Of a stretch of DNA of 64,000 nt, positions 31,677 to 63,389 are shown piece after piece. The stretch is from a virus. Location: the IMG/VR virus record IMGVR_UViG_3300021373_002437, positions 31,981 to 95,980 of that record; one strand, given 5' to 3'. The notes beneath the pieces are model-generated. The model was not told the origin of the DNA, ran no database searches, and was given only the letters and a program-made list of their open reading frames with translations. The translations under genes and the position numbers were made by a program. How positions within the stretch are numbered: the first letter of the stretch is position 1; every line of letters starts with the position of its first letter.

Positions 31677-33371
31677 ATGGCTTTTCAGCTATCACCGGGA
31701 GTACAGGTAACAGAAAAAGACCTAACTTCAGTTGTTCCCGCAGTGGGAACTTCCATTGGTGGTTATGCAGGCGATTTCCCATGGGGGCCTTGCAACGAAG
31801 TAACCACAATCACAAGTGAAAACGAATTAGTAAGACGTTTTGGTAAACCCCCTGCTACTGCTTATGAGGGTTGGTATTCCGTGGCGTCTTTTCTAGCTTA
31901 CACTGACAACTGTAAGGTGGTTCGTGCAGTAGATACTGCTGCTGCTCTTAATGCCACATCAGATGGTGCAGGGGTTCTGATTACAAACGAAGACGATTAC
32001 GAGAACAACCATGAAGCTGGTGGTGCTGGTGATGGCATGTGGGCTGCTAAATGGCCCGGTCTTGTTGGCGGCAACCTGCTTGTTTCTTTCGCAGACAGTT
32101 CTGGTGACGGTACCGCTATGGAAACCTACACTGACTGGGCGTATGCAAATCAGTTTGATTTCGCTCCGGGTACTTCAGAGTTTGCTGCTGCAGACGGTGC
32201 TTCTGATGACGAACTGCACATCATTGTAATCGATGCCGGTGGTTACTTCACTGGTCAGGCTGGTACTATCCTTGAGAGGTTTGCTGGTGTTTCTAAAGCA
32301 TCCAACGCAAAAGATTCCTTGGGTCGTTCTAACTACTACAAGACGGTAATCAATCAGCGTTCACAGTACATCTGGTGGACTGACCATCCAGTTTCTGCTC
32401 CTACTTGGGGTGGCAGTACTCTTGGTGGAACCGCTTTTGCAGATGGTCATACTGCTGCAGAATCCACGGTTACTCTTGGTGGTGGTGCTAATGGTACTAC
32501 CGTCGATGCTGACGTAGTTACTGCTTTGGACCTGCTTGAGAACGACGAACTTGAAGACGTAAACTTGATCTTCTCTGGTAACGGTTCAGCCACGGTCAAC
32601 ACAAAGATTCAGTTGGTTTGTGATACTCGTAAAGATTGTATCGGTTTTGTATCGCCACCTTCTGCTGCTGTTCTGGACAATGTTGGTTCTGAGGCTGCAG
32701 ACATTGTAACCAATGCAGACACTTATACTCGTAGCTCTTACATGGTCTACGATTCTGGTTGGAAGTATATGTATGACCGCTATTATGATCGCTACTTGTA
32801 CGTTCCCTGTAATGGTGACGTAGCTGGTCTTTGTGCGAACACTGACTATGTAGCAGACCCTTGGTTCTCGCCTGCCGGTTTTAACCGAGGTAAGATCAAG
32901 AATGCTCTTAAGCTGGCATACTCTCCAGACAAGGCAGATCGTGACACACTTTATCAGAAGGGTGTTAACCCAATAATAGCGGCTCAAGGCTCTGGTATTA
33001 CTCTGCTAGGTGATCGCACTATGCTGGACAAGCCAAGTGCTTTTGATCGAATCAACGTTCGACGCTTGTTTATTGTTCTTGAGAAGGCTATCGCAACTGC
33101 TGCTAAATTCCAGTTGTTCGAATTCAACGATGCCTTTACCCGAGCACAATTCAAGAACTTGGTAGAACCTTTCCTGCGTGACGTACAAGGTCGCCGGGGT
33201 GTGTATGACTTTAGAGTAATCTGTGATGAGACCAACAACACTCCAGAGGTCATTGACCAGAATGGATTTGTTGCTGATATTTTTATCAAGCCTGCTAAGT
33301 CAGTTAATTTCATTCAGTTGAACTTCATTGCAACTAGAACGGGCATTTCTTTTGAAGAGCTTATCGGTTAA
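31677..33371 (+). CDS. 18: Tail sheath gp18
   Basis: FQLSPGVQVTEKDLT, F.WGP, PWFSPAG.NRG, SAFDRINVRRLF, IFIKPA.S.NFI.LNF.ATRTG. Confidence 0.97.
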   Translation: MAFQLSPGVQVTEKDLTSVVPAVGTSIGGYAGDFPWGPCNEVTTITSENELVRRFGKPPATAYEGWYSVASFLAYTDNCKVVRAVDTAAALNATSDGAGVLITNEDDYENNHEAGGAGDGMWAAKWPGLVGGNLLVSFADSSGDGTAMETYTDWAYANQFDFAPGTSEFAAADGASDDELHIIVIDAGGYFTGQAGTILERFAGVSKASNAKDSLGRSNYYKTVINQRSQYIWWTDHPVSAPTWGGSTLGGTAFADGHTAAESTVTLGGGANGTTVDADVVTALDLLENDELEDVNLIFSGNGSATVNTKIQLVCDTRKDCIGFVSPPSAAVLDNVGSEAADIVTNADTYTRSSYMVYDSGWKYMYDRYYDRYLYVPCNGDVAGLCANTDYVADPWFSPAGFNRGKIKNALKLAYSPDKADRDTLYQKGVNPIIAAQGSGITLLGDRTMLDKPSAFDRINVRRLFIVLEKAIATAAKFQLFEFNDAFTRAQFKNLVEPFLRDVQGRRGVYDFRVICDETNNTPEVIDQNGFVADIFIKPAKSVNFIQLNFIATRTGISFEELIG

Positions 33372-57685: not shown

Positions 57686-59349
57686 CGTTTCAGGTAGTCC
57701 GATGGAAGAATTTTCTAGCGACAGGCAATGCGTTTACCGAGATTCGGCTGGATGATGCTCCAACGAAATTGATCTTTGGTAAGAATGGACATGGTAAATC
57801 CACGGTGTTGGATGCGATTACCTTTGCCCTTTTCAATAAGCCATTTAGGAATATCTCCAAGCCCCAGTTGGTCAACTCAGTCAACGGGAAGAAGGCTCTG
57901 GTTGAGATTGAGTTCAGTATTGGTAATAAGCATTACCTGATACGTCGAGGCATTCAGCCAAACGTATTTGATATTGTCATTGATGGTGAGAAGCTAGACC
58001 AGAATGCAAACGTGCGTGACTTCCAGAAGCACCTTGAGGAAAACATTCTCAAGCTGAACTACAAGTCATTCACACAGATTGTGATCTTGGGCAGTGCTAC
58101 CTTCACACCATTCATGCAGTTGACCACGGCTGTCCGTAGAGAAATTATTGAAGACCTACTGGACATACGAATCTTTACAGCTATGAAAGACGTATTGAAA
58201 CAGAAGACCACTATTATTAAAGAGAGGTTGGTCGAGGTTGATGCTGATCTTCGTCGTGTTGGTGAGGTCATGGAGGTAACTAATAAGTACATTGATGTAC
58301 TCAAAACTGACAAGTCGGAAAAAGCAGATCGGATAACCAGTGAAATAGAGACCTTGAAAAAATCTAGCAAGGAGACATTCAAGGAAATGAATGCTCTGAT
58401 TGAAGAGAAGGATGAGATTGGTGATGTTGTTGGTGAGAAACAAAAGCTAGAGACTTATAAAAATGAAGTGACTTTTAAGATAAACCAATTAAAGAAACAA
58501 ATAACTTTCTATGAGTCTAATAGTGAATGTCCAACATGTAAACAGCCCATTGATGAGGATTTTAAAAAGGGTGTATGTGATGAGCATAATGGTAAGCTGA
58601 CCACGATGCAGGCTGGTAGTGAAGGCATCAATAAAAAGCTTGATGAAATTAACGAGGCACATAAAAAGTATGTTGGGTTGTCCGAGAAGACTGGGGAACT
58701 CCAGACAATACTGAGAACCAACAAGACTCTGTTAGATCGCTTGGAAAACGAATTAAAGGAAGTGGAAAAGCTTTCTGGTAATATTGAAGAAGAAGAGGCG
58801 AAGGCAGCGAGTTTAGTAGAAGAGATTGCTGCCCACCAAGCGTTGAAAGATGAACTGACAGAAGAGCAGCATTACAATACTGCCATCGAATCCCTACTGA
58901 AAGACTCGGGGATTAAGACGAAAATAATTCGACAATATTTGCCGGTGATTAACAAGTTGGTGAATAAATACTTGACAGCCATGGACTTCTATGTAAACTT
59001 TGAACTAGATGAAACGTTCAAGGAAACAATCAAGTCCCGGCACCGAGATAAGTTTACCTATGCATCCTTTAGTGAGGGGCAGAAGCAAAGGATTGATTTG
59101 GCATTACTGTTTACTTGGAGAGATATAGCCAAGCTGAAGAACAGTGCCAGCACCAATCTACTAATGCTGGATGAGATTTTTGATAGTTCTCTGGATGATG
59201 ACGGTATTGATATTGTGAAGAAGCTGATTCATAAGGTCAGTGAAGATAACAATGTATTTGTAATAACACCTAAGCCAGATGACCTGTTTGACATGTTCAA
59301 GGAAGTCATTGAGTTTAGATTAAACGGAAACTATTCACAGAAGGTGTAA
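57679..59349 (+). CDS. 46: Recombination ATPase gp46 (Rad50-like); start codon anomalous
   Basis: V-IAFQVVRWKNFLATGN, GKNGHGKS (Walker A), CPTC zinc hook, FSEGQK signature, LDEIFD. The frame is open only from 57667 and has no ATG/GTG/TTG until 57769. Confidence 0.93.
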   Translation, partial: VIAFQVVRWKNFLATGNAFTEIRLDDAPTKLIFGKNGHGKSTVLDAITFALFNKPFRNISKPQLVNSVNGKKALVEIEFSIGNKHYLIRRGIQPNVFDIVIDGEKLDQNANVRDFQKHLEENILKLNYKSFTQIVILGSATFTPFMQLTTAVRREIIEDLLDIRIFTAMKDVLKQKTTIIKERLVEVDADLRRVGEVMEVTNKYIDVLKTDKSEKADRITSEIETLKKSSKETFKEMNALIEEKDEIGDVVGEKQKLETYKNEVTFKINQLKKQITFYESNSECPTCKQPIDEDFKKGVCDEHNGKLTTMQAGSEGINKKLDEINEAHKKYVGLSEKTGELQTILRTNKTLLDRLENELKEVEKLSGNIEEEEAKAASLVEEIAAHQALKDELTEEQHYNTAIESLLKDSGIKTKIIRQYLPVINKLVNKYLTAMDFYVNFELDETFKETIKSRHRDKFTYASFSEGQKQRIDLALLFTWRDIAKLKNSASTNLLMLDEIFDSSLDDDGIDIVKKLIHKVSEDNNVFVITPKPDDLFDMFKEVIEFRLNGNYSQKV

Positions 59350-59382
59350 CATGGATATTGTAGCGATCAGTGAAATTAACAC

Positions 59383-59411
59383 TTGACATCTAGGAAACAT
59401 GGTGTTATTCT
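59383..59411 (+). promoter_or_regulatory. Sigma70-type promoter for the tRNA cluster
   Basis: TTGACA-N17-TATTCT with TG extension. Confidence 0.7.
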
Positions 59412-59423
59412 AGATAAAAATTT

Positions 59424-59509
59424 GGGTAGGTATGCAAAATGGTTGAAGCAGGCAGACTGTAAATCTGTCCCGTAAGGCACTGTTGGTTCAAGTCCAGCCC
59501 TGCCCACCA
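59424..59509 (+). tRNA. tRNA-Tyr(GTA)
   Basis: GGGTAGG/CCTGCCC acceptor, GCAGA-CT GTA AA-TCTGT, long variable arm, TTCAAGT T-loop, A73, CCA. Confidence 0.95.
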
Positions 59510-59517
59510 AATTAAAC

Positions 59518-59600
59518 GCGCGAGTAGCTCAGCATTGCGAAATCAGAGCGCCCGGTTATTATCGGTAGGTGCGGTGGTTCAAGTCCACCCTCGCGCACCA
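59518..59600 (+). tRNA. Atypical tRNA, anticodon undetermined
   Basis: Perfect GCGCGAG/CTCGCGC acceptor, GCTC/GAGC D stem, GGTGG-TTCAAGT-CCACC, ACCA; anticodon loop only 6 nt (TTATTA); 15-nt D-loop without GG. Confidence 0.7.
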
Positions 59601-59613
59601 AATTAAAAGCTTC

Positions 59614-59749
59614 GGGGGTACTGACATGTACTCGCAACACGAAAGTCGTACAACTTTCTACTGGTTGTGAGTCGGGCGAGTCGCGCTAGCCGTACACTAG
59701 CTATCAATACTATAGATTGTGATAGGTTCGAATCCATCTGCCCCCACCA
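59614..59749 (+). ncRNA. 136-nt tRNA-shaped RNA with a D-loop hairpin insertion
   Basis: GGGGGTA/TGCCCCC acceptor plus ACCA, TTCGAAT T-loop, GCTAG-CCGTACA-CTAGC anticodon-like arm. Confidence 0.75.
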
Positions 59750-59819
59750 AACATATGTCGCGGAAACAGACCGACTGGCTATGACCGCTGCCAGTAACCA
59801 AATCATGAAGGAGTAGTAA

Positions 59820-60185
59820 ATGGATAGAGATAGAATCAAACTTTGTGCAGAAGTGCTGGAAGATGCCTGCCATGGAGCCGCTAAAAGTGCGGGCTGGTGG
59901 GACCGAGAAAAAACTTGGGAAACATTTCCTCGTTGTCTTACGTTGATTCATAGTGAAATCAGTGAAGCCATGGAGGGTGATCGCAAAGGGTTGATGGATG
60001 ACCACCTTCCAGACCGTCCAATGCGAGAAGTTGAATTGGCTGATGCTGCAATACGAATTTTTGATTTGGCTGGTGCATATGATCTTGATATCGGTGGTGC
60101 AATTGCCGACAAGCTAGCGTACAATGCTCAACGTGCAGATCATAAGAAGGAAAACCGTCAAGCTGCTGGTGGTAAAACGTATTAA
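59820..60185 (+). CDS. MazG-like nucleotide pyrophosphohydrolase
   Basis: LIHSEISEAMEG.RK, EVELADA.IRIFDLAG, K..YN..R. Confidence 0.8.
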   Translation: MDRDRIKLCAEVLEDACHGAAKSAGWWDREKTWETFPRCLTLIHSEISEAMEGDRKGLMDDHLPDRPMREVELADAAIRIFDLAGAYDLDIGGAIADKLAYNAQRADHKKENRQAAGGKTY

Positions 60186-60206
60186 TCAGGCTAATAGGAG
60201 AATAAT

Positions 60207-63211: not shown

Positions 63212-63389
63212 GACTAAGCTAAGAATTGAAATACAAGAGACTTCCAACGGTTGGATTCTTGAATACACTCGCTGGGAAGAGACCGTACAGTTTGTGTTCT
63301 CCCGGTACAACCCGCTGATGCGTCATGTACGAGCAGTTTTTCGTGGTGATCTAAACCCATTTGAAAAGGAAGGCTCTGATGACTCTTAA
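63204..63389 (+). CDS. Hypothetical protein
   Basis: GGAG SD; I.I....NGWIL motif. Confidence 0.55.
   Translation: MDETKLRIEIQETSNGWILEYTRWEETVQFVFSRYNPLMRHVRAVFRGDLNPFEKEGSDDS

Follow-up and report, generated by a model that had tools for sequence, protein, structure and literature searches.

We analyzed a 64,000-nucleotide stretch of viral DNA (positions 31,981–95,980 of the IMG/VR record IMGVR_UViG_3300021373_002437; hereinafter the window, to which coordinates refer unless another record is named), which makes up the 3′ two-thirds of a 95,980-bp record with a CheckV completeness of about 51%. Its source is a T4-like marine myophage, whose major capsid protein shares 70% identity with its counterpart in the OM43 phage Melnitz and 66–68% with those of the Pelagibacter phages HTVC008M and Mosig, all of them Kyanoviridae. 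Between the end of its gp46 recombination-nuclease gene (59349) and the start of its peptide deformylase gene (60207) lies, on the plus strand, a row of three RNA genes, each terminated by an encoded CCA, followed by a gene for a MazG-like pyrophosphatase. The last of the three, a five-armed tRNA-Tyr-like element of 136 nt (59614–59749; numbered 1–136 from its own first nucleotide), is the subject of this analysis. It stands downstream of a genuine tRNA-Tyr(GUA) gene and of a second, aberrant tRNA-like gene, which are described further below.

The element folds as a class II tRNA-Tyr(GUA)-like cloverleaf with an extra arm in the D-loop (all parts on the plus strand). The 5′ strand of its acceptor stem (59614–59620) pairs with 59739–59745 (1–7 with 126–132) in 7 bp that include U6-G127 and retain the tRNA pair G1-C72; the 3′ strand runs on through the discriminator A73 (A133 of the element) into the encoded CCA (134–136), so that this segment spans 59739–59749. 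The D stem has the pairs G10-C69, A11-U68 and C12-G67. The D region, 54 nt long, holds a 43-nt hairpin (59630–59672; 17–59) in which 9 bp are followed by a 2/5-nt internal loop and a further 6 bp (15 bp in total), topped by the 6-nt loop CGUACA (59647–59652; 34–39), which contains both the tyrosine codon UAC and the self-complementary GUAC. After the hairpin comes a GG (G61 G62; 59674–59675) that by its position would take the place of G18 G19. The anticodon-type arm (59685–59701) has 5 bp (72–76 with 84–88) and the 7-nt loop CCGUACA (59690–59696; 77–83), in which G34 U35 A36 lies between C33 and C37. It is followed by a 19-nt class II variable region (59702–59720; 89–107), drawn by ARAGORN with a 4-bp stem and a 7-nt loop, and by the T arm (59721–59738), whose stem (108–110 and 112–113 with 121–125) carries a bulged A (A111; 59724) and whose loop has the consensus sequence UUCGAAU. 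A preceding sequence-only reading of the same DNA had listed the acceptor with CCA, the D-loop hairpin, the retained GG, the two CGUACA loops, the GTA arm with C33 and C37, the long variable arm and the bulged T stem with TTCGAAT, and all of these are present. It had also assigned a 4-bp D stem, whose fourth pair, U9-G70, is possible; a 3-bp stem, as in class II tRNAs, is the better fit. Beyond that list, the element has C8 and U14 in place of the usual U8 and A14.

All 39 of the 39 pairs in this fold are standard, with no mismatches, and the GC content of the element is 50% against 40.7% for the genome. The cloverleaf has a predicted energy of −37.4 kcal/mol and the minimum free energy (MFE) structure one of −43.0 kcal/mol, a gap of 5.6 kcal/mol. 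The hairpin is kept in both the MFE and the centroid folds; the MFE structure further retains the acceptor and the anticodon arm and loses the T arm, a loss that says little because the MFE structure of the genuine neighboring tRNA-Tyr misses the cloverleaf too.

In its native form the element draws no tRNA call from ARAGORN, and it is matched by the Rfam tRNA model RF00005 neither at the gathering score nor at E≤10. Once the hairpin (17–59) and A111 are deleted in silico, ARAGORN, run with its defaults, reports a 92-nt tRNA-Tyr(gta). The features of RF00005 that it possesses are the 7-bp acceptor, A73, CCA, UUCGAAU and a 5-bp/7-nt arm with a central GUA; those that it lacks are U33, a purine at 37, U8, A14, a regular T stem and a normally sized D-loop. 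At the sequence level, the bacterial tyrosine identity set as given in PMC9976931 is complete in it (G1-C72, A73, G34 U35 A36 and the long variable arm). At E≤10, blastn aligns only the last 25–31 nt of the element, with the 3′ ends of numerous phage tRNA genes that include at least 10 for tRNA-Tyr. A covariance model built from the element as a single sequence (R1) gives the element itself 175 bits and ordinary class II tRNAs 17–36 bits, with nothing between; among other RNAs, class II tRNAs are its top scorers. Because of the ARAGORN call after trimming, the phage tRNA-Tyr-like 3′ end and the R1 ranking, we consider the element to be derived from a tRNA of the tyrosine type.

Several other identities were considered and rejected. 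The element is not a one- or two-piece tmRNA, as the sequence-only reading had likewise held: its 3:70 pair is G-C, it has no tag frame, ARAGORN finds no tmRNA in the window and Rfam gives no tmRNA match. No Rfam family matches it when checked to E≤10; none of the models, including YrlA/bacterial Y RNA-like ones, overlaps 59614–59748 at this threshold, and the nearest match (DapZ, 14.3 bits, E 9.2) lies on the minus strand, starting at 59749 and extending downstream. An intron is disfavored by the bacterial host, by the unpaired exon ends flanking the hairpin and by a spliced product that would still carry C33, C37 and the bulge, and we are aware of no bacterial process by which a hairpin in the D-loop could be excised. 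Overlapping small open reading frames (ORFs) are short and unsupported, and a repeated mobile hairpin was discarded, the 43-nt insert being unique in the 96-kb record. A recent duplication of the phage's own tRNA-Tyr was rejected as well: the two align with 51 identities over about 90 positions (z 3.7), which amounts to generic tRNA similarity. The 96-kb record, about 51% complete, yields no match to the tyrosyl-tRNA synthetase (TyrRS; PF00579) or TGT families.

Searches for homologues of the element covered phage, metagenomic and prokaryotic collections. Against 50,697 GenBank phages, blastn at E≤1e-5 recovered matches solely to the neighboring tRNA-Tyr and none to the element, and an exact 25-mer from the T arm and acceptor had 0 matches in IMG/VR. 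Two patterns built on the paired loops were run over IMG/VR: the first gave at least 118 matches, none with a downstream T loop, and the second 24 matches, all to unrelated families; a pattern combining the two loops with the T loop gave 12 matches in 185,579 prokaryote genomes, 0 of which fit R1 at E≤1. Synteny via the MazG-like gene led to 80 loci, none with an upstream tRNA cluster, and synteny via gp46 in IMG/VR and the JGI metagenomes led only to relatives at most 44% identical, without the element. R1 itself, a single-sequence model that together with its loose first filter can miss distant relatives, returned ordinary tRNAs only from about 100 whole viral records in all: sets of 30 and 46, a further 20 of giant phages bearing a TyrRS, and the genomes of the cultured phages Melnitz, HTVC008M and Mosig. 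The same held for the stretches with tRNA genes in the closest long relatives. Separately, the loop patterns brought up a conserved element of about 150 nt in ten IMG/VR contigs (L323, L324, L327, L330, L332, L333, L338, L339, L344 and L345; six of the ten from one large metagenome) with three CGTAC motifs and a tRNA-type T arm at its end; it matched the loop pattern only and is unrelated to the 136-nt element.

CGUACA occurs in the loop of the hairpin and again in that of the anticodon arm. The chance that a random 6-nt loop equals any 6-mer of CCGUACA is 3.7e-4, and the genome shows no enrichment of CGTACA (22 occurrences on the plus strand against 20 expected); just one further copy with paired flanks in the 96-kb record, at window position 63284, sits on a weak 4-bp stem. 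Both loops read C-G-U-A and thus present the determinant of colicin E5, which is YGUN with A preferred as N (PMC1635277). The presence of YGUA in the two loops would be compatible with a decoy, yet it is not evidence for one.

The genomic setting places the element among tRNA genes. The genuine class II tRNA-Tyr(GUA) gene (59424–59509, plus strand; loop CUGUAAA, CCA encoded), which the sequence-only reading had recognized, is called by ARAGORN and scores 49.2 bits with the Rfam tRNA model; it lies 105 nt upstream of the element. Between the two is an aberrant tRNA-like gene of 83 nt (59518–59600, plus strand), with an Rfam tRNA score of 39.8 bits and no ARAGORN call, in which the acceptor, D and T stems and the CCA are perfect, the 15-nt D-loop lacks GG, the anticodon loop UUAUUA has 6 nt (or 8 nt with its closing G-U open), and the anticodon stem has two non-standard pairs in the Rfam tRNA alignment. 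The spacers between the three genes (59510–59517, 8 nt; 59601–59613, 13 nt) each open with AAUUAAA right after the CCA; this may reflect either a processing signal common to them or an origin by tandem duplication. A sigma-70-type promoter-like site (59383–59411, plus strand; TTGACA-17-TATTCT, with TG before the second hexamer), recognized by its match to the consensus alone, sits 13 nt upstream of the first tRNA gene. Given this site and the lack of any terminator-like site in 59200–60000, we infer, as the sequence-only reading had stated, that the element is co-transcribed with the genuine tRNA-Tyr. The MazG-like pyrophosphatase gene (59820–60185, plus strand; phrog_5658, 7e-59) begins 70 nt 3′ of the element.

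In four longer related contigs (identity of 70–86% for the capsid proteins and 47–52% for gp46) the genes gp47, gp46, deformylase and the next two stand in the same order; at their gp46–deformylase junction they have nothing or a different small ORF. Relative to the junction at 59350–60206, the relatives L289–L292 show a direct overlap of the two genes, an ORF of about 80 amino acids (L289) or one of about 180 amino acids (L291). As the junction is differently filled in these relatives, the RNA row and the pyrophosphatase gene are a lineage-specific filling of a variable slot; relatives of the pyrophosphatase gene itself occur in many unrelated small phages, none with adjoining tRNA genes. Contigs from two seawater sequencing runs of two studies, one of which may itself be the source sample, carry identical DNA wherever they cover the locus, without sequence variants over the covered parts; one run spans the whole element and the other 59454–59627 and 59664–59850. 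Since the sequence recurs identically in contigs of two runs, the element is real DNA rather than a one-off assembly error. A third run gave no coverage of the element, and the listed runs carrying the sequence include no RNA run.

We tentatively favor, at a level somewhat short of probable, the interpretation of the element as a processed, small, stable and non-decoding mimic of tRNA-Tyr, which keeps the tyrosine identity marks and presents YGUA twice. The steps that follow are deduced from anatomy and context. Transcription would begin early, at the 59383 promoter, and cover the element along with the real tRNA-Tyr and the second odd tRNA; the element would be excised like a tRNA, as RNase P and the 3′ trimming enzymes would need only the acceptor and T arms, both of them intact, and the CCA is encoded. 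The retained G1-C72, A73, G34-U35-A36 and long arm could then be read by bacterial TyrRS and other tRNA-Tyr-binding proteins, while the features required by the ribosome would be lost with U33, the purine at 37, U8-A14 and the regular T stem; a 15-bp hairpin is placed at the elbow. Such a mimic would most likely occupy, divert or block a host factor aimed at tRNA-Tyr; candidates include an anticodon nuclease of the colicin E5 type, another tRNA-Tyr-directed defense, or an enzyme that modifies or charges this tRNA. Translation would meanwhile be kept supplied by the intact neighboring tRNA-Tyr.

The structure looks maintained rather than decayed, to judge from the uniformly standard pairs, the raised GC content, the clean and unique 15-bp hairpin, and the placing of the deviations from an ordinary tRNA, which, except for a single bulge, fall on single-stranded, function-deciding positions (8, 14, 33 and 37). 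A role as decoy or competitor is plausible in the light of the YGUA loops and of the conflict known to surround tRNA-Tyr. The sequence-only reading had gone further and proposed a bivalent anticodon-loop decoy or inhibitor of factors directed at tRNA-Tyr; a tRNA-shaped RNA that derives from tRNA-Tyr and is unlikely to decode is supported, and the decoy function itself is conjecture. One of the examples it invoked, retron Ec78 PtuAB, proves a misfit for an anticodon-loop decoy: Septu-type nucleases cut tRNA-Tyr in its variable loop (PMC13096335), and for such enzymes a pair of anticodon-type loops has no obvious relevance. Other observations also weigh against the mimic. No homologue came up in any collection searched, and neither conservation nor covariation of the two loops lends it support; the closest relatives have nothing like the element between gp46 and the deformylase gene; its folding z-score, −1.9, is weak; C33 reduced cleavage by colicin E5 in one study cited by PMC1635277; and the aberrant state of the neighbor at 59518–59600 could mean relaxed selection across the row.

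Another explanation is that the element is a decaying or neutral paralogue, that is, a tRNA-Tyr acquired with the cassette whose D-loop received a palindromic insert and whose anticodon loop was altered by point mutations, and which no longer has a function but has so far escaped deletion. We regard it as doubtful. It agrees with the orphan status of the element in every collection, with the variable slot and the relatives that lack the cluster, with several independent defects (C8, U14, C33, C37 and the T-stem bulge), with the non-canonical neighboring gene, and with the distance of the element from the phage's own tRNA-Tyr, of which it is no recent copy. It fits poorly with a full set of standard pairs alongside an intact CCA, T loop and GG, with an insert that forms a proper hairpin in two tiers and has in its loop six bases of the anticodon loop, against the low chance given above, and with the GC content above that of the genome; moreover, dense phage genomes rarely retain dead DNA. 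One could also imagine the reverse, a tRNA-Tyr that still decodes and is hardened against nucleases, in which the hairpin, the bulge and the changes at 33 and 37 would block recognition by tRNA-cutting defenses, but this we consider quite improbable. U33 and a purine at 37 are near-universal in decoding tRNAs, and here both positions are C; U8-A14 is lost, and the T stem, to which EF-Tu binds, is bulged. We know of no precedent for a 43-nt D-loop insert in an elongator tRNA, the element has no RF00005 match, and an ordinary tRNA-Tyr is already encoded upstream. What speaks for hardening is the GUA in a 5-bp/7-nt arm with the tyrosine identity marks kept, the frequency of anticodon-loop changes in phage tRNAs, for which nuclease evasion has been proposed (PMC10264068), and the resistance of the T5 tRNA-Tyr to retron-Eco7 through its distinctive variable loop (PMC13096335). 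Highly improbable, in our estimate, is a mere processing signal, in which cleavage by RNase P or a 3′ enzyme would set the 5′ end of the pyrophosphatase–deformylase mRNA in the manner of the t-elements reportedly documented in plant mitochondria: the next gene is indeed 70 nt away with no terminator between, but the two preceding tRNA-shaped units would already serve this end, and the hairpin and the repeated loop would be left unexplained.

The repetition of the loop may alternatively be structural, a proposal that we rate as unlikely and that is compatible with a non-decoding mimic. As GUAC is self-complementary, the hairpin loop (a G followed by the tyrosine codon UAC) and the anticodon loop (G34-U35-A36 and the unusual C37) could form a 4-bp kissing helix, which within one molecule would mask the anticodon and between molecules would yield dimers, and the two loops would then not be two sites for one protein; the hairpin loop could also bind the anticodon of the real tRNA-Tyr by 3 bp, like a T-box specifier. 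Kissing would account for the otherwise odd C37; the 4-bp duplex of the two loops has a predicted energy of −4.6 kcal/mol, and 15 bp plus the internal loop approximate, by our estimate from general geometry, the distance from D-loop to anticodon in an L-shaped tRNA. Against this, about 4% of random 6-nt loops would form 4 contiguous Watson–Crick pairs with the 7-nt loop, the identity of the loops extends to the flanking C and A that kissing does not need, and a masked anticodon would be hidden from TyrRS too. Taken further, the elbow hairpin might act as a built-in ruler, a cis counterpart of the T-box Stem I, in a self-decoding mimic whose G-UAC would meet its own G34-U35-A36-C37 and close the RNA with a 4-bp kiss, or would clamp the anticodon of the host tRNA-Tyr; this is a long shot, and were it true, codon–anticodon pairing outside the ribosome would hide or capture the tRNA-Tyr anticodon loop from nucleases or modification enzymes. 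UACA and UAC are cleavage motifs of MazF; with UACA in both loops and a MazG-like gene next door, a MazF-type decoy is an idea only, to which we give no weight.

Returning to the non-decoding mimic, comparison with known RNAs helps to place it. With the class II tRNA-Tyr(GUA) of bacteria and phages the element shares the 7-bp acceptor with G1-C72, A73, the CCA, the 3-bp D stem, the central GUA in a 5-bp/7-nt arm, the long variable arm, UUCGAAU and the phage-like 3′ end, and it departs from them in the 43-nt D-loop hairpin, C8, U14, C33, C37 and the bulged T stem. The sequence-only reading had drawn a parallel to the species 1 and 2 RNAs of phage T4, whose function is, to our knowledge, still not known. 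The gene order upholds it: in T4 a tRNA-Arg gene is followed by rnaD (species 2, 119 nt) and then rnaC (species 1, 139 nt), so that in both phages the 3′ end of the tRNA row is occupied by a shorter odd RNA and then a longer tRNA-like RNA with a consensus T arm, at sizes of about 120–140 nt, and rnaC, like the element, combines an acceptor-like stem with long hairpins. Sequence similarity does not: rnaC lacks an anticodon-type arm with a GUA loop, and R1 gives it 10.1 bits, confined to its 3′ 95 nt, which is less than the T4 tRNA-Leu, tRNA-Ser and tRNA-Thr receive (17–22 bits for tRNA-Ser and tRNA-Leu). Rfam has no family for rnaC or rnaD. By analogy the element may work like these RNAs, but it cannot be filed with them.

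Phage-borne tRNA-Tyr is itself part of a documented conflict. Septu and retron-Eco7 cut tRNA-Tyr, phage tRNA-Tyr genes rescue infection, and the authors of that work raised a decoy or supplement role for the phage tRNA-Tyr (PMC13096335). The tRNA-Tyr genes of T5 and T6 thus have in common with the element that they provide a phage-borne RNA of the tRNA-Tyr type amid such a conflict; unlike it, they encode full decoding tRNAs without an extra arm. The tyrosine-type tRNA-like structure (TLS-Tyr) of bromoviruses keeps A73 and the anticodon nucleotides and is read by TyrRS (PMC9976931). That of brome mosaic virus (BMV) resembles the element in being a non-decoding viral RNA with tyrosine identity marks and differs from it in forming the 3′ ends of plant RNA viruses, in having the eukaryotic C1-G72 and in lacking a free cloverleaf; in sequence and setting the two are unrelated.

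Among the giant phages that encode a TyrRS, one of 401 kb has two tRNA-shaped RNAs with a common 3′ end (L463, about 151–233 and 420–498; G083:C1:267550-267897), the first of which carries a short D-region hairpin (ACTCC-TCTG-GGAGT) and a closed 4-nt ‘anticodon’ loop. Its D-region hairpin is comparable in design, whereas the element has a 15-bp hairpin and an open 7-nt GUA loop, and no link between RNAs of this type and the element is apparent from sequence or model. Another, of 412 kb, has two tRNA-Tyr-like variants just upstream of a canonical tRNA-Tyr (L460, 37–126 and 223–316; G081:C1:110416-110695), with the common acceptor CGGAAGG/CCTTCCG; one has a 5-bp D stem and the other a CUGUAAA loop on a long hairpin directly after the acceptor.

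Further odd tRNA-like RNAs were noticed in other records. A related phage contig with an 80% identical capsid protein codes on its minus strand for a circularly permuted two-piece tmRNA (L296, about 1330–1530; region of G054:C1:73726-73871), which leads with the T arm, acceptor and CCA of the 3′ part and continues with the 5′ piece starting GGGGGTGA and the tag frame ANDNVAFALAA; a two-piece permuted tmRNA has likewise been reported for the Melnitz phage group (PMC9004378). A complete 171-kb relative has a tRNA-Tyr(GUA)-like gene without an ARAGORN call and absent from the Rfam listing (L376, 9196–9280; G053:C1:132196-132280), with the normal loop CUGUAAA, the T loop AUCGAUA and an odd D arm, which aligns best with the genuine tRNA-Tyr of the window (z 7.3); in the same relative a 78-nt tRNA-like RNA ends a row of 24 tRNAs (L376, 9453–9530; G053:C1:132452-132529), at 24 bits below the Rfam threshold, with a small D-region hairpin (CTGG-CTACGAA-CCAG) and no clear anticodon arm. 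Serratia phage BF has an unannotated 125-nt tRNA-like gene (NC_041917, 296567–296691; L387, 1501–1625) whose acceptor, D and T arms are canonical and whose anticodon region is interrupted by about 50 extra nt that include a hairpin. Another phage contig has a 100-nt tRNA-like gene before tRNA-Trp and tRNA-Gly (L064, 3414–3513), which ARAGORN gives as tRNA-??? with a 4-base anticodon and which has an insert in the anticodon region. Finally, 134 nt closed by a perfect acceptor and CCA enclose a second full T arm, acceptor and CCA (L336, 2562–2695), and may be a nested or interrupted tRNA.

The element is one gene from one uncultured phage, known from its DNA alone; it would seem to belong with the tRNA-like stable RNAs of phages, a known kind, and to bring to them a particular design that appears new. 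tRNA-Tyr is an established target of nucleases of the Septu, retron-Eco7 and colicin E5 types, to which the phage answers known so far are ordinary tRNA genes. If the favored interpretation is true, a non-decoding look-alike of tRNA-Tyr that retains the identity marks and presents the motif of a nuclease twice would constitute an RNA-level counter-measure of a new design, and it would offer a handle on the role of the species 1 and 2 RNAs of T4. The little-sampled marine lineage near the Pelagibacter and OM43 myophages from which it comes also carries a two-piece tmRNA, which suggests a heavy investment of these phages in translation-related RNAs.

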